From: Gammaproteobacteria bacterium | GTDB taxonomy: Bacteria > Pseudomonadota > Gammaproteobacteria > UBA1113 | DNA length: 64,000 nt | NCBI GenBank assembly: GCA_021773305.1 | Contig: JAJFKH010000007.1 | Coordinates: 8,058-72,057 of the forward strand | Direction: 5' to 3' | In this document: one piece after another, positions 51,950 through 61,228 of the stretch | Layout: every line of letters begins with the position of its first letter | Numbering within the stretch: the first letter of the stretch is position 1 | The notes under the pieces: generated by a model | What the model was told of the DNA's origin: nothing | Seen by the model: only the letters and a program-made list of their open reading frames with translations | The model's database searches: none | Translations under genes and position numbers: made by a program

Positions 51950-52417
51950 ATCATACTGTTGTTGACAACCACCTAAAGCACTCTCAACTGTGGTACCACA
52001 AGGCAATAGCAAATTAGGGGTAATTTCATAGAGCGGCAATAAAACAAAATAACGGGCTTTCAAGCCTTCATGGGGCACTATCAAACGATCACTGCTGATG
52101 ATTTCATCACCATAGAGCAAAATATCGAGATCCAGTGTCCTCGCTTCCCAACGGATCGATCCTCGCTGACGATCGTGGTTATCTTCAATCTGATGTAGCT
52201 CATTGAGTAATATTTCAGCGTTTAGCTGAGTATGAATCAAAACCACTGCATTAATATAGTAAGGTTGATCCTGAGGCCCCATCGGTGCACTCTGATATAA
52301 AGATGACACGCTCAATAGCTGTGTCTCAGGCAACAGACTTATTTCGCGAACTCCCTGCTTAACATGAGCCATGGGATCGTCTAAGTTACTTCCAAGGCTA
52401 AGGTAGGCAGCAATCAT
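51920..52417 (-). CDS. folK: 2-amino-4-hydroxy-6-hydroxymethyldihydropteridine diphosphokinase
   Basis: YLSLGSNL, RTLDLDILLYG and LIVPH. Confidence 0.96.
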   Translation of the reverse strand: MIAAYLSLGSNLDDPMAHVKQGVREISLLPETQLLSVSSLYQSAPMGPQDQPYYINAVVLIHTQLNAEILLNELHQIEDNHDRQRGSIRWEARTLDLDILLYGDEIISSDRLIVPHEGLKARYFVLLPLYEITPNLLLPCGTTVESALGGCQQQYDLVRLGESCV

Positions 52418-53751
52418 TGGAATTTTCTGTTGGGGAGTTGACTCATCAATGCCCCTCGTTGTTCCTCATTACCCTGAATAAAGTTTGTCCACCATTGGCC
52501 TGCTTGAGCAAAAGTTGGATCCACTTCCCCTCGTAACAATAGAAAATCATAGGCGGCTCGAAAACGAGGATTGTCCAATAAACGATAAATTTTTCGTTGT
52601 TCACGTCTTTCGAGTAAATACTGCAAATCCCAAATCTCTCGCATAATCCCCACGAGGCGCTTAGGAATTGCTGTATGCTGACATTGTAAACGTAACACAT
52701 CGGCCTCAGCTCTCTCAAAAGCAAGACGAGGCCCCATACGCTCTTTTTTGTAAGCTTGAGCAAGATCAATTGTGGGATACCAAAGTAGCGCTGCAAATAA
52801 AAATGCGGGGTTGACGGGTTTTCCTTGAGCAATCCTCTCATCCGTATTACGAAAAACTCGTAGCAAAAAACTATCCGCTAACTGATGTAATTGGGGATCT
52901 TGCAAAATTTGCTCTGTCATTGGAAATAAAAAATCCAATAACTCATAATGCCTGAGCAGAGAAAAAGTTTCTACCCCTGCACCGCCAAGAAATAGCTTCA
53001 GTGATTCATCGTAAAGTCGCGCATTTGAAATATGATCGAGTAACTCGCCCATTTCACCGATGGGTGCTTCCGTATCTGGGTGGATCACAAACCCTAGCTT
53101 CGCTGCAAAACGCACTGCCCGTAGAATACGTACGGGATCTTCTCGATAACGTTCACTAGGATCACCGATGATTCGCAAAATCCCTTGTTTGAGATCTTCT
53201 AGCCCATCAGCATAATCAACAAGACTAAAATCGGCGATATTGTAGTAAATAGCATTGACCGTAAAGTCTCGACGCCAAATATCATCATCCAAAGTACCGT
53301 AAACGTTATCTCGTAAAATCACCCCATGGGATGAACGACCCTTAGCTGTTGCGCCATCGCTACTGTTTTCTTGACCAGGCGCGCGAAAAGTTGCCACTTC
53401 AATAAGCTCATCTTTAAAATACACATGGGCTAAACGGAATCGTTTGCCAATCAAGCGACAATTTTTAAATAATTTCTTAACCTGTTCAGGCTTTGCATCG
53501 GTGACTACATCAAAATCTTTTGGCTCTCGGCCCAGCAATAAATCACGAACACCACCACCCACAATATAGGCTTCATAGCCTGCACTATTTAATCGACGCA
53601 GCACTTTAATGGCATGTTCACTGATAAATGCCCGAGATACGGTATGGTGATCCCGCGGTATGATCTTCTTATGTACAGAGCATGCTTTGGACGCCGAAGC
53701 CATCTCCTGTCCCTTGATAAATCCTGTCACCTTCTTTATGAATTTTTTCAA
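52414..53751 (-). CDS. pcnB: Poly(A) polymerase I
   Basis: VGGGVRDLLLG, PKDFD, LIGKRFRLAHV, RRDFTVNA and RFRAAYDFL. Confidence 0.96.
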   Translation of the reverse strand: MKKFIKKVTGFIKGQEMASASKACSVHKKIIPRDHHTVSRAFISEHAIKVLRRLNSAGYEAYIVGGGVRDLLLGREPKDFDVVTDAKPEQVKKLFKNCRLIGKRFRLAHVYFKDELIEVATFRAPGQENSSDGATAKGRSSHGVILRDNVYGTLDDDIWRRDFTVNAIYYNIADFSLVDYADGLEDLKQGILRIIGDPSERYREDPVRILRAVRFAAKLGFVIHPDTEAPIGEMGELLDHISNARLYDESLKLFLGGAGVETFSLLRHYELLDFLFPMTEQILQDPQLHQLADSFLLRVFRNTDERIAQGKPVNPAFLFAALLWYPTIDLAQAYKKERMGPRLAFERAEADVLRLQCQHTAIPKRLVGIMREIWDLQYLLERREQRKIYRLLDNPRFRAAYDFLLLRGEVDPTFAQAGQWWTNFIQGNEEQRGALMSQLPNRKFQ

Positions 53752-55878: not shown

Positions 55879-57564
55879 CTAAGCGACGATAGGCGACTCA
55901 CTGCTAAACAATGCTTCGATTTTAGCTTTTGGCATTGCCTTAAAACACTCTTTCTTTTTTGCATCTTTTTGTGATAACAATAGCGTTATTTCTTTTTCAG
56001 CCAAGGCATTAGTATGACTCGCACTATAAACCGTCGCAATAAGATGAGCACTCTCATCTGTGCTTTTTGTCGTTAAAAATCCATCGAATAATTTATCCAA
56101 GCAATCACCCATATTAAATTGTCGTAGAAATCCCGGTGCTTTTCGTACGACAACATTCGTCGGTGACATCACTGAAATAACAAAACCTAACTCATCAAGT
56201 CTCTCACTCATTTTTTCTATCTTTTCAACATCTATTTCTTTTAGCGTAAGCTCTTTAGGGATCAATAAAGGTTGGCTATGTACCTTATTGAGTGGTACAT
56301 TGGGAGGCAACTCACTCAACGCATAATGATAACGTAATTTAACACGGTCATAAATTTCAATACCTGTTGAAACCTTTAAGAAAAGGTAGCGATCGGCAAT
56401 GGTGATATAAGACGATAAATCTAAATCACTTTCGCTACTGCTATCACCCATATTTGAATAATGACTTACAGCAGGTTCTCTGACCGCGCTACTCTGAGAC
56501 GCTGCCCTATCATAATCTGAAGGTTGCGCATAGGACGCCGATCCTTCTGCCGTGCTAGTAGCAAATTGCTCAGCTTCCTGAGGCACAAGAGCCTGACGAA
56601 TATGGTGAGCAACAAAATCATGAATTAAGCGGCTGTCACGAAAACGCACTTCATGCTTTGTTGGATGGACATTCACATCAACCATGTTTGGATCAATGTC
56701 TAAAAATAAAACATAGCATGCATGCCGACCTTCATAGAGTAAATCATTATAGGCTTGACGCATCGCATGGCCTAATAGACGATCTCGAACAACACGTTTA
56801 TTAACATAAAAATATTGTAAATCCGTCTGGCTTCTTCCATATTCAGGTAATCCTAACCACCCCCATAGTGTAAAACCCACCGCAGAGAATTCAATAAACG
56901 TCGAGTTTTTTAAGAAATTTTGACCACAAATTGTTTTAATCCGCGTTTTGTCTTCACTGGCTCGACTCTGTAAAACATCTCTTTGGTTGTGCCTTAAGGT
57001 AAATCCAATGTTAAAATGACTCAATGCAATTTTTTTAACAATATCTTCAATATGGGAAAATTCTGTTTTCTCCGTGCGCAGAAAATTTCTTCTCACGGGA
57101 GTATTAAAAAATAAATCTTCTACATCAATGGTTGTACCTTGAGGATGGGACGCCGGTTGAATATCAACCTTCATCTCTTTGCCTGCAACATTGGCCCGCC
57201 AAGCATTGGTATCATCAGCAACCTTTGAGCAAATACTTAAACGAGAAACTGACGCAATACTTGCGAGTGCCTCACCGCGAAACCCCAAACTTGCAATCGC
57301 TTGCAGATCATCAAAATGCTTAATTTTACTGGTTGCATGGGGACTCAATGCTAGCGCTAAATCATCTTTGTGGATCCCACATCCATCATCTCTAATGCGA
57401 ATCAGCCGCATACCGCCCTTTTCGATATCAATTTGAATGTTTTTTGCTCCAGCATCAATACTATTTTCAATTAATTCTTTTACAACAGATGCGGTTCGCT
57501 CAACGACTTCTCCAGCCGCTATTTGATTTGCAAGTAGTAAAGGCAATTGATGAATTCGTGGCAT
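55879..57564 (-). CDS. mutL: DNA mismatch repair protein MutL
   Basis: NQIAAGEVVER, GFRGEALASI and DVNVHPTKHEVRF. Confidence 0.96.
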   Translation of the reverse strand: MPRIHQLPLLLANQIAAGEVVERTASVVKELIENSIDAGAKNIQIDIEKGGMRLIRIRDDGCGIHKDDLALALSPHATSKIKHFDDLQAIASLGFRGEALASIASVSRLSICSKVADDTNAWRANVAGKEMKVDIQPASHPQGTTIDVEDLFFNTPVRRNFLRTEKTEFSHIEDIVKKIALSHFNIGFTLRHNQRDVLQSRASEDKTRIKTICGQNFLKNSTFIEFSAVGFTLWGWLGLPEYGRSQTDLQYFYVNKRVVRDRLLGHAMRQAYNDLLYEGRHACYVLFLDIDPNMVDVNVHPTKHEVRFRDSRLIHDFVAHHIRQALVPQEAEQFATSTAEGSASYAQPSDYDRAASQSSAVREPAVSHYSNMGDSSSESDLDLSSYITIADRYLFLKVSTGIEIYDRVKLRYHYALSELPPNVPLNKVHSQPLLIPKELTLKEIDVEKIEKMSERLDELGFVISVMSPTNVVVRKAPGFLRQFNMGDCLDKLFDGFLTTKSTDESAHLIATVYSASHTNALAEKEITLLLSQKDAKKKECFKAMPKAKIEALFSSESPIVA

Positions 57565-57568
57565 TGTT

Positions 57569-58876
57569 CTATCCTTTTTTGGGTATTTTTAATACCTGTC
57601 CCACACGGATGTTATGACTCTTAAGATGATTTTCTTTTTTCAAAGCGTCTGTACCAATATGGTAGTAATGAGCAATGCTTGATAAACTATCACCTTTTGC
57701 AACCTTATGCTCTCCTAAACTTTCAACATGACTTGCAAGCCATGTTCCCGGGGGAGGATTTTGATAAAAATATTCCCGCAGACCGCTTAAAATTGCTTCA
57801 GCAATTTTTCGCTGATAAATAGGATCTTTTAATCGCTTTTCTTCTTGAGGGTTAGAAAGAAAACCCGTCTCGACTAAAATAGAGGGAATATCTGGAGATT
57901 TAAGTACCATAAAGGGAGCTTGTTCAACACCGTGATGATGTAGTCTACTCACTCTACCTATTTGATGCAGCACTTCATCACCCAAATTAAGACTTGCGCT
58001 AATGGTAGCCGTTTGAGACAAATCAATTAAGACCGAACGCAGCAAATCATTTTTACCGTTCAAGCTCACACCACCCAACTCAGAGTAATTCTCTTTTTCA
58101 GCTAACCAACGAGCCGCTTCACTACTGGCACCTTTAAGAGACAAGGCATACACTGATGCACCACTGGCATGAGCATGTTTAAATGCATCCGCGTGAATCG
58201 CCACAAAAACGTCGGCTTTCGTCGAGCGCGCTTTTTTTAATCGTTCTCGCAAGGTCACATAATAATTTTTATCCCGGGTCATTTCAGGGTTCATACCTTT
58301 TTCACGCTCTAACAAATGATACAGTTGTTTAGAAATCTCTAAGACAACATCTTTTTCTCTAGTGCCATGAGGGCCTGTCGCTCCTGGATCCTTCCCCCCA
58401 TGGCCTGGGTCAATTAACACAATGATATTACGCATGGGTGTTGCTGCGATAATTAAGGGTTGCAGTTTCCCAGGCTTGGTCGTCGTTACATGCAGAATCA
58501 CTTGATTATTTTGTGTTTTCTGAGATCGAATAAAAACAGATCGTTGCAAATCAAACACAATACGTAGCACATGAGGCTTGGGATAACCGTGACGCACTTT
58601 GCTGAAGGGAGCATCAAGAAGAGAAATATCTTTGAGGTTCATACCCAGGTGTGTATCATCCAGATCGACTACTAACCGCTGAGGATTATCTAACAGGAAA
58701 TACCGAAATGTAACATTTTTATTAAAGGAAAAATGAATATCTGTTTGCTCGGCAGAAGAGTGGTTATCCATATAAATAGATAATAAGTCTGCATCAGTAC
58801 TTCGCCCCGCAGCGCCTGTACTCAACCCCAACCATATGACAATAAAAAAAATACTAGCTTTTATACGATGTTGCAT
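57569..58876 (-). CDS. amiB: N-acetylmuramoyl-L-alanine amidase (AMIN + Amidase_3 + LysM)
   Basis: DPGHGGKDPGA, IHADA, LVETGFLSN and a C-terminal LysM. Start placed at the ATG at 58876. Confidence 0.9.
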   Translation of the reverse strand: MQHRIKASIFFIVIWLGLSTGAAGRSTDADLLSIYMDNHSSAEQTDIHFSFNKNVTFRYFLLDNPQRLVVDLDDTHLGMNLKDISLLDAPFSKVRHGYPKPHVLRIVFDLQRSVFIRSQKTQNNQVILHVTTTKPGKLQPLIIAATPMRNIIVLIDPGHGGKDPGATGPHGTREKDVVLEISKQLYHLLEREKGMNPEMTRDKNYYVTLRERLKKARSTKADVFVAIHADAFKHAHASGASVYALSLKGASSEAARWLAEKENYSELGGVSLNGKNDLLRSVLIDLSQTATISASLNLGDEVLHQIGRVSRLHHHGVEQAPFMVLKSPDIPSILVETGFLSNPQEEKRLKDPIYQRKIAEAILSGLREYFYQNPPPGTWLASHVESLGEHKVAKGDSLSSIAHYYHIGTDALKKENHLKSHNIRVGQVLKIPKKG

Positions 58877-59321
58877 GTCGAATGACTTCACGCCCCTTTC
58901 CACTGTAACCTTCCATAATAACTCCACGCCCTTGTTCAGGAAGCAAAATATTGCACCAAAGATCGGCCTTAGGCAACATACCACGACCCTTCTCAGGCCA
59001 TTCAATCAAACAAATGCTCTGTCCATCAAAATAATCTCTGATCCCCATGGCTTCTAATTCTTCTGCATCGTGAATACGATACAGATCAAAATGATAAATT
59101 CTGTGCTGCCCAATGTCATAGGGTTCAACTAACGTATACGTCGGACTTTTGACCGAATCTTTGTACCCTAAGCCTCGCAGTATTCCTCTAACCAAGGTCG
59201 TCTTCCCAGCACCCAAGTCACCACTTAGGGTTACCACAATCCCAGGAGAAAGTGCTTCAGCCCATACAGCACCCCACTGTAGCATTTCATGCTCATCAGC
59301 TAATTCAATGGTTGTTTGCAT
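58854..59321 (-). CDS. tsaE: t6A biosynthesis ATPase TsaE
   Basis: LSGDLGAGKTT, VKSPTYTLVEPY, HFDLYR and IEWPE. Confidence 0.97.
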   Translation of the reverse strand: MQTTIELADEHEMLQWGAVWAEALSPGIVVTLSGDLGAGKTTLVRGILRGLGYKDSVKSPTYTLVEPYDIGQHRIYHFDLYRIHDAEELEAMGIRDYFDGQSICLIEWPEKGRGMLPKADLWCNILLPEQGRGVIMEGYSGKGREVIRHATSYKS

Positions 59322-60808
59322 CAGAGTTTATTCACAAAATCACGAATATGAGGTAATAAATCCGTTGCTAATAATCCCCTTTCTCCAAGCTGAGCCGCGT
59401 TATCAGCCGCTAAACTATGCACCAGCACACCGGCTTGAGCAGCCACTGTCATGGTCAACCCTTGGGCGACAAGCCCTGCAATGATACCGCTTAACACATC
59501 TCCCATACCACCACTGGCCATACCAGGGTTACCATGGGGGCACACTGCCACAGGATATTCCGATCCTAACACTAAACTCCCCGATCCCTTCAGCACAACC
59601 ACCCCAGAAAACTTTTCTTGTAATGCCTCTATTGCAGCAAAGCGATCGCGCTGAATTTCTTCAACAGGAACACCTGATAATTGAGAGGCTTCTCCTGGAT
59701 GGGGTGTCAAAATCCAGTCCTTTTGAGATTCTGTTTTCACTAAAAAACCCAAACCATCAGCATCCACAATAAAAGGCTTATCGTGCTCCATGCAACAAGC
59801 AAATAGGGCCGTTGCCCAGTCATCAGAGCCTAATCCAGGCCCCAGTACAACCACTGACGCTTTATCTAAAAGAGGCAATAAATCATCACCCGTTGCAACA
59901 CCATGACACATAATTTCGGGACGAGGGCCACTGATCGCTGCCACATGTTCCTGCCGAGTCGCAACACTCACCAGCCCTGCCCCAGCCCGATAAGCGGCTT
60001 CCGCTGCCATCCGCGCAGCACCTGCCATACCATAATTTCCACCCACGACCAGTACATGGCCAAAATCGCCTTTGTGAGCATCCCGAGAACGCGCTCCCAG
60101 ACAATCAGCCAGTTCATCCATATTCAAAAGAAATGCATTTTCATCAATATCCTGGAACATATCCTCCTGAAGATCTAAATCATCCAGCACCACTTCGCCA
60201 CTGCACTCAATGCCTGAGCCGGTGTATAACCCTTGCTTTACACCAATAAAGGTTATCGTCATGTCAGCAACCACGGCATCTCCATGAATAGAGCCTGTAT
60301 CTGCATCCAAACCTGAAGGAATATCCAACGCAAAAACGGGGGCGTCCATGAGATTAATTTCTTCAATCGCTTCCAAAAAGATCCCTGTCACATCCCTATC
60401 AACGCCGGTTCCTAAAATAGCATCCACAATTAACTCGCATTCTTGTAAATCCACCTTTGCACTATAAGGTTCAATGATCACCCCAGCACTTTTACTTGCT
60501 TCAAAAGCAATCAAAGCAGCACCTTTTAACGATGCCGTCTCTCCTAAATGAAAAGCTCGTACTTCCACACCATCCAGTTGCGCCATGCGAGCTAAAACAT
60601 AACCATCCCCACCATTATTGCCTGGGCCACACAATACTGTAATACGCCCTACATCACTCCAAGTTCCCTTAAGCGCTCGGTAAGCGGCCAGCCCAGCACG
60701 CTCCATCAACATTTGCTCGGAAACATTATGTTGTTTAAATGCATTTTTTTCTAATTCTTTTATTTGATCAGATTGGTATAACTCAGTAAATTGAAATTCC
60801 ATCGCCAT
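59321..60808 (-). CDS. nnr: Bifunctional NAD(P)H-hydrate epimerase/dehydratase
   Basis: LMERAG, GNNGGDG, HKGDFG, LTPHPGEA and GMGDVLSG. Confidence 0.96.
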   Translation of the reverse strand: MAMEFQFTELYQSDQIKELEKNAFKQHNVSEQMLMERAGLAAYRALKGTWSDVGRITVLCGPGNNGGDGYVLARMAQLDGVEVRAFHLGETASLKGAALIAFEASKSAGVIIEPYSAKVDLQECELIVDAILGTGVDRDVTGIFLEAIEEINLMDAPVFALDIPSGLDADTGSIHGDAVVADMTITFIGVKQGLYTGSGIECSGEVVLDDLDLQEDMFQDIDENAFLLNMDELADCLGARSRDAHKGDFGHVLVVGGNYGMAGAARMAAEAAYRAGAGLVSVATRQEHVAAISGPRPEIMCHGVATGDDLLPLLDKASVVVLGPGLGSDDWATALFACCMEHDKPFIVDADGLGFLVKTESQKDWILTPHPGEASQLSGVPVEEIQRDRFAAIEALQEKFSGVVVLKGSGSLVLGSEYPVAVCPHGNPGMASGGMGDVLSGIIAGLVAQGLTMTVAAQAGVLVHSLAADNAAQLGERGLLATDLLPHIRDFVNKL

Positions 60809-60875
60809 AGCGAGACCCTCAGGTGTCAGAGTATTTAGCTAAGGATAACAAGTTGTGCCAAGAATTGGCAAGAAG

Positions 60876-61126
60876 GCAATCATCTTAAAAAGTAAACGGT
60901 GGCGCTATTCTTCTTTTTCTGTCTTATTCTTGTTCTGTGCGCGTAAACAACACTTTTTTTATTTTAATTGTCTCGTGTCATTTATTAATTACAACGACAA
61001 GCAACAATCTTAAAAAGCAAACAGTGGCGCTATTCTTCTTTTTGTGTCTTATTCTTGTTCTGCGCGCATAAATAACACTCTTTGTTGCTTTAATTGTCTC
61101 GTGCTATTTGTTAGCTACTATAACAA
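60876..61126 (-). ncRNA. Candidate structured non-coding RNA, two tandem ~125-nt units
   Basis: Direct repeat 60876-61000 / 61001-61126 with no shared ORF. Differences between the copies are compensatory or G-U compatible on the minus strand. Confidence 0.5.
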
Positions 61127-61228
61127 CGGGATGTTAAGGTTATATGAATTGAGGAAAAACTTTTAAAATTTAATGGATATATTTATTTTATTCTTTAAAG
61201 TGAAAGTGGCATTTCCACCATTCCTACC

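Follow-up and report, generated by a model that had tools for sequence, protein, structure and literature searches.

The window, that is, the whole stretch of 64,000 nucleotides that was analysed, carries a short tandem repeat inside the 420-nt gap between orn and nnr. The original prediction had placed the repeat between these two genes, and Pfam matches confirmed the flanks as orn (RNase_T) and nnr (YjeF_N and Carb_kinase). The gene order nnr-tsaE-amiB-mutL given there was also recovered, with tsaE, amiB and mutL coming after nnr on the minus strand. The genes and repeat units are as follows.

61229-61780, minus strand: orn (oligoribonuclease); Pfam RNase_T at 3.4e-31 and tblastn alignments
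61001-61126, minus strand: repeat unit 2, 126 nt, the upstream unit in the minus-strand reading; direct repeats, alignment and nhmmer (E 2e-39)
60876-61000, minus strand: repeat unit 1, 125 nt, the downstream unit in the minus-strand reading; direct repeats, alignment and nhmmer
59321-60808, minus strand: nnr, first gene of nnr-tsaE-amiB-mutL; Pfam YjeF_N and Carb_kinase
55879-57564, minus strand: mutL

The orn reading frame is open to 61891, and relatives align with it from residue 41-42 in tblastn, which makes M38 the likely start.

The tandem 125-nt repeat was readily reproduced as two direct copies by a direct-repeat search and by alignment. Two pieces match between the copies, the first 83 nt long and 89% identical, the second 46 nt long and 76% identical, and their spacing is 125/126. 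Tandem Repeats Finder did not report the 125-nt period, only short arrays of 10-13 nt, and nhmmer with --max, run over the flanks and the rest of the genome, revealed no degenerate third copy. Aligned with each other, the copies differ in 20 of 126 columns (16 transitions, 3 transversions and 1 indel), and these differences are placed roughly as at random: the longest identical run spans 20 columns (P 0.44), while the longest stretch with at most one difference spans 39 (P 0.057). The 3' part has somewhat fewer of them, with 8 in columns 49-126 against 12 in columns 1-48 (Fisher P 0.043). The only palindrome in the units is GCGCGC in unit 2, and unit 1 does not share it. An assembly artefact can be excluded, because contigs from two sequencing runs span the locus with 0 differences: a 1192-nt contig from run X1, possibly the source of the assembly, covers 60752-61700, and a 151-nt contig from run X2, a second sample of the same study, crosses the copy junction (60925-61075). 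In a third run of that study, next to none of the locus sequence was present.

The 420-nt gap is specific to this lineage. Four loci of the family have orn directly upstream of nnr in the same orientation, and there only 15-55 nt separate the end of the Orn alignment from the beginning of the Nnr alignment, compared with 424 nt here; the two genes thus abut in these relatives, so within the family the gap is a recent feature. Its G+C content is 34%, whereas the genome has 40%. When genes are approximated by a crude ORF set, 87 of the 1386 intergenic gaps in this genome reach 400 nt or more, so the length of the orn-nnr gap is unusual, not extreme. The genome also contains at least three further non-coding tandem duplications, with periods of 190, 326 and 398, identities of 85-94% and no Rfam or tRNA match, indicating that such duplications are tolerated. 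ARAGORN found no tRNA remnants in the 64,000-nt window, distant blastn gave no plasmid or phage match that would point to a mobile element, and no regulator gene lies adjacent to the gap. Four loci from other genomes have an ORF of 360-398 aa between orn and nnr, which we take to be queG-like from the gene order in E. coli. The possibility that the gap is a relic of this gene was rejected: in tblastn of the four ORFs, the best match within the gap had an E of 0.45, and no match at 1e-5 was found elsewhere in the genome.

The repeat unit is also without detectable relatives. It had been put forward as undescribed, and no Rfam family matched it significantly (best match E 0.18), nor was there any gathering-level Rfam match in the whole window. 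Among 40 relatives, the best BLASTN match had an E of 0.003 and covered 25-35 nt only. A covariance model of the unit found nothing at E <= 0.1 in the 20 other genomes of the family, which is also the whole order; a single match at E 0.15 per genome was set aside as being at chance level across 21 genomes. The power of these searches is limited, because even the nearest relative's Nnr is only 51% identical to the one here. An Nnr-based metagenome scan yielded 66 loci, the best of which was only 55% identical, and hence no congener for alignment. An Orn-based scan of genome contigs yielded 80 loci at 61-69% identity, six of them with nnr downstream on the same strand, and gave no syntenic orn-nnr gaps for comparison. 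No homologue of the unit from which covariation might have been read was thus found among the relatives searched. A 32-letter pattern of the unit with 31 specified bases had 0 matches in genome contigs. A looser, gapped pattern had three matches in viral contigs, all 213-369 kb long; nhmmer scored only one of these (E 3.6) and not the other two, and all three were judged to be chance.

Scans for promoter-like and terminator-like sites on the minus strand gave the following, together with two U5 runs and the TTTAAA-17-TATAAC motif, which the scans did not list.

61205-61219, minus strand: terminator-like hairpin right after the orn stop codon; terminator scan, local fold -10.0 kcal/mol
61185-61212, minus strand: promoter-like ATGCCA-16-TAAAAT upstream of the repeat; 9/12 positions, a consensus match only
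61139-61167, minus strand: the TTTAAA-17-TATAAC motif of the original prediction, lacking the last T of the -10 hexamer
61012-61016, minus strand: U5 run after a weak hairpin of unit 2 (A-tract, stem and U-tract, -5.4 kcal/mol)
60887-60891, minus strand: U5 run after a weak hairpin of unit 1 (-3.2 kcal/mol)
60842-60871, minus strand: promoter-like TTGCCA-18-TATCCT with TG, between repeat and nnr; promoter scan

The TTTAAA-17-TATAAC motif that had been offered as a promoter is indeed present at 61167-61139 (minus strand) but was missed by the promoter scan, because the final T that the scan requires is absent. The hairpin UGCCAA/UUGGCA described downstream of the repeat is present at 60870-60856 (minus strand), folds at -9.2 kcal/mol and is overlapped by the TTGCCA-18-TATCCT site. 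The latter is the best-scoring promoter-like site beside nnr and lies downstream of both units. Within the units, a promoter-like site was found in unit 1 only (60988-60961, minus strand). Six promoter-like sites were found in all, compared with 2.2 +/- 1.5 in shuffled sequences, and these are consensus matches only. The hairpin following orn is the sole terminator-like site in 60600-61400, and in that interval the scan found none within the units or between the units and nnr.

The RNA-structure signal of the repeat is no better than chance. Each unit had been said to fold into three hairpins on the minus strand; the stems in question turn out to be weak (0 to -4.9 kcal/mol), and the folding energy of the repeat matches that of shuffled sequences. 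Stem 1 reaches -4.9 kcal/mol in unit 1 and is not part of the minimum free energy (MFE) fold in unit 2, stem 2 reaches -3.0 kcal/mol with 4 pairs only, stem 3 amounts to -0.2 and 0.0 kcal/mol, and the MFE folds differ between the two units. Relative to dinucleotide shuffles, z for the folding energy of the 331-nt region is -0.56 (minus strand) and -0.21 (plus strand), and the single units have z values of -0.48 and -1.04. In alifold on the minus strand, randomly mutated copies did at least as well in 0.45-0.80 of cases by energy and 0.68-0.69 by SCI; the corresponding values on the plus strand were 0.12-0.86 and 0.14-0.49.

The argument that the differences between the copies preserve pairing does not stand up to controls: all 16 pairs of the three stems are standard in both copies, but covariation does not rise above chance. 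Two of these pairs are altered on both sides and four on one side, and the G-U pairs occur on the minus strand only. If the structure is treated as fixed in advance, the 8 substitutions at paired positions break no pair (P about 0.0005). When helices are instead chosen after seeing both copies, the 2 double changes observed compare with null means of 0.2-3.2 under random mutation of one copy, and for minimum helix lengths of 4-7 the P values are 0.18-1.0 for double changes and 0.05-0.93 jointly. In a shuffle control of the pair changes, which is powerless with two sequences, 121/500 shuffles scored as high. As the covariation fails these controls, chance and transition bias suffice to account for it in the two copies, the only sequences known; the original prediction had itself named such an outcome among those that would refute it. 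The three linkers reported as invariant are identical in both copies, but their invariance is marginal (P 0.06-0.44). There is a general lesson here: in two A/U-rich sequences, short hand-picked hairpins can be expected to show pair-preserving differences by chance, and such differences should therefore not be counted as covariation.

A more distinctive property of the units is a pair of A-rich tracts in each.

61032-61059, minus strand: pair of (AAN)4 tracts in unit 2 (AACAAGAAUAAG, AAAAAGAAGAAU), motifs of the Hfq distal-face type
60907-60934, minus strand: pair of (AAN)4 tracts in unit 1, with the same sequences as in unit 2

All four such tracts of the repeat are on its minus strand and the plus strand has none, whereas the genome as a whole has 0.21 per kb per strand. 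Pairs of (AAN)4 tracts no more than 60 nt apart occur 22 times in the genome, 19 of them within ORFs of at least 100 aa; of the three that are non-coding, two are the repeat units themselves. The genome encodes an Hfq that, over residues 1-68, differs at few positions from the P. aeruginosa and E. coli proteins of solved structure and matches them exactly in the stretch around Tyr25. CrcZ titrates Hfq by occupying its distal face with six A-rich stretches, and the Y25D exchange abolishes binding (PMC4063720).

We consider it most probable, at roughly 0.4, that the repeat is a drifting tandem duplication of lineage-specific orn-nnr spacer DNA. The spacer would have been duplicated in tandem, likely by slipped-strand or unequal recombination, and would later have drifted. 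The gap would then hold the terminator-like hairpin of orn and promoter-like sites for nnr-tsaE-amiB-mutL, with the two 125-nt units between them, and no three-hairpin RNA would have been selected. Should an upstream promoter fire, transcription would simply run across the units, which would make up a weakly folded, A-rich 5' leader on the nnr mRNA, and they would have no dedicated function. The near-random spread of the 20 differences points in this direction, as do the weakness of the claimed stems and the chance-level results for folding, alifold energy, SCI and post-hoc helices. So do the recent origin of the gap within the family, the failure to find any relative of the unit, the three or more comparable duplications in the genome and a gap length that is not extreme. 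Less easily accommodated is that both copies have been kept to 16% divergence, since tandem duplications are usually soon lost through general repeat instability. The fixed-structure test, the smaller number of differences in the 3' part and the rarity of paired (AAN)4 tracts outside ORFs also count against simple duplication and drift.

The main rival, which is possible, is that a promoter upstream of unit 2 drives synthesis of a functional A-rich RNA from the minus strand, whose four single-stranded (AAN)4 tracts would be held by Hfq on its distal face. Such an RNA may take the form of a long 5' leader of nnr-tsaE-amiB-mutL or, less likely, of an sRNA of about 125-270 nt ending at the U5 runs, and it may titrate Hfq as CrcZ does or place the mutL-containing operon under Hfq control. 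A stand-alone sRNA is less favoured than a leader because no terminator-like site lies in or after the units and the hairpins before the U5 runs are weak. The confinement of all four tracts to the minus strand speaks for an RNA of this kind, although they could merely reflect the 41% A of that strand; so does the occurrence of non-coding (AAN)4 pairs at these units and only one other site, in a genome that encodes Hfq with a conserved core. The promoter-like site at 61212-61185 lies upstream, with no terminator-like site between the units and nnr, but the hairpins with their U5 runs are too weak for the terminator scan. The fixed-structure P and the confinement of the G-U pairs to the minus strand would agree with a transcribed RNA, whereas the remaining structural measures lie within chance and no homologue provides independent covariation. 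Precedents exist for both modes of action: CrcZ for titration by A-rich stretches (PMC4063720) and, for a leader, a mismatch-repair gene that Hfq can repress through its leader with no sRNA needed (PMC5580658). The CrcZ model, however, scores only 11 bits here against a cut-off of 95, and the nnr start codon follows the tracts only after 100-250 nt, so that blocking of the ribosome site as in amiE is not directly applicable. A more far-reaching version, which is doubtful, would have the units as modules of a new, lineage-restricted Hfq-binding RNA (a leader or a processed sRNA) that arose by recent insertion and duplication between genes abutting in relatives; its four putative distal-face (AAN)4 sites would couple Hfq availability to nnr-tsaE-amiB-mutL or sponge Hfq.

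The units might instead act as DNA, as duplicated upstream promoter sequence (tandem sites for a regulator or nucleoid protein, or A/T-rich UP-like DNA) serving the site at 60871-60842. We think this unlikely. The geometry would suit it, in that the best promoter-like site beside nnr is downstream of the units, which then occupy about -40 to -290, and the 125-nt spacing is arithmetically near 12 helical turns; the low G+C of the gap relative to the genome would suit it as well. Yet the units have no palindrome or known operator motif in common, the promoter-like sites are consensus matches only, and there is no adjacent regulator gene. Very improbable is a structured tandem cis-regulator of the riboswitch or attenuator type, with two aptamer-like domains in the nnr leader. 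It would explain two units of about 125 nt in tandem, directly upstream of an operon and in sense orientation, but not the lack of a significant Rfam family, a folding energy equal to that of shuffles, weak stems with MFE folds unlike between the units, or the absence of the element from all relatives searched, whose orn and nnr abut.

A final alternative concerns the opposite strand. The units were said to share no ORF, which is true of the minus strand but not of the plus strand, where both copies contain a 15-codon GTG...TAA ORF antisense to the A-rich tracts.

61024-61071, plus strand: 15-codon ORF of unit 2, with 2 amino-acid changes and 1 synonymous change relative to unit 1
60899-60946, plus strand: 15-codon ORF of unit 1, GTG start

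The unit 2 ORF is also the end of a 44-aa ORF (60937-61071, plus strand). All 15 residues in unit 1 and 14/15 in unit 2 are hydrophobic (I, V, L, F, C, M or A), and the ORF coincides with the best-conserved block of the repeat, where one of its 3 substitutions is synonymous and one changes Phe to Leu. These features would fit a tandem type I toxin-antitoxin locus of the Ibs/Sib type, with a plus-strand hydrophobic peptide and a minus-strand cis-antisense RNA, which we nevertheless regard from the sequence as quite improbable. All three plus-strand frames are open across this pyrimidine-rich block, so an ORF is expected from composition. No Shine-Dalgarno motif was found within 20 nt upstream of either ORF, the promoter scan found no plus-strand site upstream of either, and the overlapping longer plus-strand ORFs have no Pfam match. 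A screen for type I toxins asks for a tandem short ORF in one intergenic region, 16-70 aa, a hydrophobic stretch of at least 10/15, a polar, charged or aromatic C-terminal region, and translation signals (PMC2887945). Measured against that screen, the ORF occurs in both units and is hydrophobic enough, but at 15 aa the peptide is one below the lower limit, the translation signals are missing and the C-termini (...VLCA and ...VLRA) have no polar or charged tail (PMC2887945).

If the repeat is duplicated spacer DNA, as we prefer, then, as matters stand, it joins other orphan tandem duplications in the intergenic DNA of metagenome-derived genomes and is of little significance. To our knowledge, no sRNAs have been characterised in the host's uncultured gammaproteobacterial order. 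An A-rich RNA, if it exists, would represent the de novo birth of an Hfq-binding RNA module through spacer duplication, and would show CrcZ-like logic a second time, unrelated to CrcZ and outside Pseudomonas, in front of a mismatch-repair operon.

Several known systems invite comparison. In sibling sRNAs such as OmrA/OmrB, PrrF1/PrrF2 and AbcR1/2, every copy comes with a promoter and a terminator of its own, and conservation extends across species. The locus resembles them in having two diverged short non-coding units head to tail in one intergenic region, a theme that has been reviewed (PMC4211561). It is unlike them in that a promoter-like site is found in unit 1 only and a terminator-like site in neither, and in that the unit has no homologue in any genome searched. 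With Ibs/Sib and Ldr/Rdl it shares a tandem intergenic unit of about 100-150 nt, a short hydrophobic ORF and a possible antisense RNA (PMC2887945), but its ORF has just 15 codons and is without ribosome-binding motif, polar tail or family match. CsrA sponges of the RsmY/RsmZ/CsrB type carry repeated GGA loop motifs that are absent here; the original view that the repeat is not RsmY/Z-like is sound, as GG dinucleotides are lacking from the minus strand of both units. CsrA itself is encoded in the genome. Hfq-bound leaders, namely those of amiE in P. aeruginosa and mutS in E. coli, are similar in having ARN/AAN repeats upstream in sense orientation (PMC4063720, PMC5580658). In amiE, the A-rich stretch overlaps the ribosome-binding site, in contrast to the distant candidate tracts here (PMC4063720); the likeness to the mutS leader (PMC5580658) extends to the operon here, which includes the mismatch-repair gene mutL. 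To CrcZ the element shows no homology in sequence or structure; it is also smaller, measuring 251 nt with 4 tracts where CrcZ has six stretches in 407 nt, and sits in a different genomic context, the orn-nnr gap. CrcZ is linked to cbrB and has regulated, high-level expression from a CbrAB/RpoN promoter. The Rfam model (RF01675) aligns at 60892-60971 (minus strand) with an E of 3.9, short of its gathering score. The resemblance to CrcZ/CrcY of Pseudomonas lies in arrangement: in both cases several A-rich (AAN)n stretches stand between short hairpins on one strand, and the four (AAN)4 tracts here would, as motifs, suit the distal face of Hfq.

The tandem repeat between orn and nnr is real and lineage-specific. 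Its two head-to-tail copies, unit 1 (60876-61000) and unit 2 (61001-61126), were borne out by a repeat search and by alignment, in which 20 of 126 minus-strand columns differ (16 transitions, 3 transversions and 1 indel). Misassembly does not account for the duplication, because DNA contigs from two sequencing runs of one study, X1 and X2, agree with the assembly without difference. A 1192-nt Logan contig of X1, which may be the source sample and hence is not independent, matches 60752-61700, and a 151-nt contig of X2 matches 60925-61075 across the unit junction.

The parent contig (C67) belongs to a genome of 2.47 Mb in 110 contigs, 98.9% complete and with 40.2% G+C. Its genus is represented by one species, its own, in the genome collection searched, and its order comprises one family of 21 genomes. 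On the minus strand, orn is followed by a gap of 420 nt (60809-61228) and then by nnr, tsaE, amiB and mutL:

ORF open to 61891, likely start Met38 at 61780, minus strand: orn, RNase_T domain
59321-60808, minus strand: nnr, first gene after the gap
58854-59321, minus strand: tsaE
57569-59005, minus strand: amiB
55879-57564, minus strand: mutL

Met38 is the likely orn start because relatives align from residue 41-42. The 37 open codons upstream of the Met where all relatives begin aligning (61781-61891, minus strand) overlap the start of divergent plsY (61866-62462, plus strand), so this extension is probably untranslated. The gap is long, yet not extreme for the genome, where 87 of 1386 inter-ORF gaps in a crude ORF set reach at least 400 nt. 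Downstream of mutL comes a YgjP-like gene on the opposite strand instead of miaA-hfq, in contrast to the E. coli superoperon. Farther downstream, some 7 kb from the repeat and sharing its strand, is a pcnB-type poly(A) polymerase gene (52414-53751), whose product has a PolyA_pol head domain together with RNA-binding and Arg-rich C-terminal domains.

Orn was found within the flank at 6 of the 20 family loci with Nnr, the window's own not counted among the six. At four of them (L030, L031, L033, L045) orn stands directly upstream of nnr on the same strand, with 15-55 nt between Orn-end and Nnr-start alignments, versus 424 nt in the window; at L032 orn is on the opposite strand, and at L035 the two genes are separated by an opposite-strand ORF of 375 aa. 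By this comparison of gene order, the gap with its repeat is a lineage-specific insertion or expansion. An opposite-strand ORF of 360-398 aa, presumably queG-like by its position in the E. coli gene order, separates orn from nnr in four other gammaproteobacterial loci:

L035:276-1400, intervening ORF
L140:3074-4267, intervening ORF
L197:3040-4164, intervening ORF
L180:4006-5085, intervening ORF

No relic of such an ORF was detected within the window's gap, and tblastn with these four, run over the whole genome of this bacterium at E 1e-5, found no counterpart.

Searches for relatives of the unit were likewise negative. BLASTN and nhmmer (--max) found no further copy in the genome, so that the unit is unique there, and the entire gap, compared by BLASTN with 40 relatives, gave chance-level matches only (best E 0.003, length ~20-40 nt). 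At E ≤ 0.1, a covariance model that combined both units with the predicted structure hit 0 of the 20 other genomes in the family and order. The species-representative genome collection lacked an exact 32-letter pattern with 31 specified bases, and plasmid and phage collections gave no match. An Nnr-based metagenome scan yielded 66 loci, all at ≤55% identity, and therefore no close relative to compare.

Self-comparison of the genome revealed many tandem repeats, mostly with periods divisible by three and inside long ORFs. In-frame repeats of 99 nt (33 residues) occur in such ORFs on seven or more contigs, and other in-frame periods are 81, 102, 111 and 333 nt; these suggest that repeat proteins form large families here. 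Examples with a 99-nt period are:

C18:10067-10941
C28:881-1526
C47:1194-1590
C64:13702-14193
C84:34020-34592
C85:2819-3569
C7:592-755

At least three further tandem duplications, with 85-94% identity, are non-coding:

C30:1412-1903 (L203:513-1004), period 326
C93:10794-11061 (L204:495-762), period 190
C94:20212-20885 (L205:513-1186), period 398

These three lack an Rfam or tRNA match, and no ORF of ≥90 aa overlaps them; in the C93 repeat, unit 1 carries a GC-rich hairpin and then a T run. Diverged non-coding duplications are thus either tolerated in this genome or form an unexplored class.

The original prediction was of three minus-strand hairpins per unit, with differences that preserve pairing and invariant A-rich linkers. 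The stems do exist, with 16 of 16 pairs standard in both units, and there are two two-sided changes (C-G to U-A and G-C to A-U) and four one-sided ones. When the 16 transitions and 3 transversions were placed at random on this structure, taken as given, at least eight paired-position changes without a broken pair arose in ~0.05% of trials. This figure called for controls, because the structure was picked after viewing both copies, and short helices with G-U pairs abound in A/U-rich sequence. One control counted every helix conserved in both sequences and treated randomly mutated copies in the same way. The real pair had 2 double-compensated pairs (null means 2.9-3.2, P 0.73-0.79) and, within conserved helices, 15 substituted columns (null means 13.2-13.5, P 0.25-0.34); joint P was 0.28-0.38 for a minimum helix length of 5, 0.05-0.21 for 6 and 0.69-0.93 for 7. 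The C-to-U change in column 5 also suits a different helix (columns 1-5 paired with 29-33) that cannot form together with the first, illustrating how readily changes are "explained" by some helix.

RNAalifold energy and structure conservation index (SCI) were no better for the real pair than for randomly mutated copies, the nulls being at least as good in 0.45-0.80 (energy) and 0.68-0.69 (SCI) of cases on the minus strand and 0.12-0.86 and 0.14-0.49 on the plus strand. Fold stability was unremarkable over the 331-nt region (z -0.56 minus, -0.21 plus) and in single minus-strand units (z -0.48 and -1.04), whose MFE folds are unlike each other. In isolation, stem 1 of unit 1 reaches -4.9 kcal/mol, that of unit 2 does not form the MFE structure, stem 2 reaches -3.0 kcal/mol with four pairs only, and stem 3 -0.2 and 0.0 kcal/mol in the two units; a hairpin of A-tract, stem 3 and U-tract reaches -3.2 and -5.4 kcal/mol. 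That the linkers are invariant is borne out, but does not stand clearly apart from chance (longest run of identity 20 columns, P 0.44; longest window with ≤1 difference 39 columns, P 0.057; differences in the 5' versus 3' part of the alignment, Fisher P 0.043). The built-in covariation shuffle control is without power for two sequences (121 of 500 shuffles equally high). For the two existing copies, chance and transition bias thus explain the covariation, one of the outcomes named with the original prediction as refuting it; the evidence offered for a structured, covarying RNA is no better than chance. A tandem riboswitch-like element is highly improbable.

Scans of the region for transcription signals gave:

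61219-61205, minus strand: terminator-like site directly after the orn stop codon, the sole one of the region (local fold -10.0 kcal/mol)
61212-61185, minus strand: promoter-like site upstream of the repeat
60988-60961, minus strand: promoter-like site inside unit 1 only
60871-60842, minus strand: promoter-like site TTGCCA-18-TATCCT with TG, between the repeat and nnr

Promoter-like sites number six in total versus 2.2 ± 1.5 in shuffles. The predicted TTTAAA-17-TATAAC is present at 61167-61139, but its -10 hexamer is missing the final T, and it does not appear among the scan's sites. The terminator scan found no site within or after the units. We favour, at a probability of about 0.42, a tandem duplication in which spacer DNA between orn and nnr would have been copied and then drifted; were an upstream promoter active, the units would be read through as an A-rich leader. 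That the repeat instead serves as DNA-level sites is unlikely.

On the plus strand, the conserved block is pyrimidine-rich with all three frames open, and both units hold a short ORF:

60899-60946, plus strand: 15-codon ORF with GTG start, entirely hydrophobic peptide
61024-61071, plus strand: the same ORF in the other unit

[quoted passage not shown] However, it is one residue under the lower length limit used in that paper, has no polar tail, and is preceded by neither a Shine-Dalgarno motif nor a promoter-like site, while longer overlapping ORFs match no Pfam family. The ORFs differ by one synonymous, one Phe-to-Leu and one Cys-to-Arg substitution. We consider the toxin-antitoxin reading very unlikely.

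A functional A-rich minus-strand RNA acting through Hfq is a tentative alternative to drifted spacer DNA, and a leader would be likelier than an independent sRNA, since the units and nnr have no terminator between them. The one piece of evidence for Hfq binding is a motif count, that of four perfect (AAN)4 tracts (none on the plus strand), although the strand is already 41% A:

61059-61048 and 61043-61032, minus strand: (AAN)4 tracts of unit 2
60934-60923 and 60918-60907, minus strand: (AAN)4 tracts of unit 1

Genome-wide there are 860 non-overlapping tracts of (AAN)4 or longer and 22 pairs ≤60 nt apart, 19 of them inside ORFs of ≥100 aa; the three non-coding pairs are the two units and one site at C79:17036-17076 (plus strand). 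The genome encodes CsrA, ProQ (PF04352) was not found in it, and Hfq is encoded, followed by hflX, on contig C44 (L115:1483-3004), not on the amiB-mutL contig. As to known RNAs, the Infernal search called for by the original prediction matched no Rfam family (best mir-315, E 0.18), the CrcZ model scored 11 bits against a cut-off of 95, and the whole window had no gathering-level match; the repeat is a member of no Rfam family, not CrcZ and not an Rsm/Csr sponge. Over residues 1-68, Hfq differs by few substitutions from its structurally solved P. aeruginosa and E. coli counterparts, with identity throughout the stretch surrounding Tyr25. [quoted passage not shown] Given the tracts, the conserved Hfq and the precedent of CrcZ, an Hfq-binding role for RNA from the repeat is chemically plausible.
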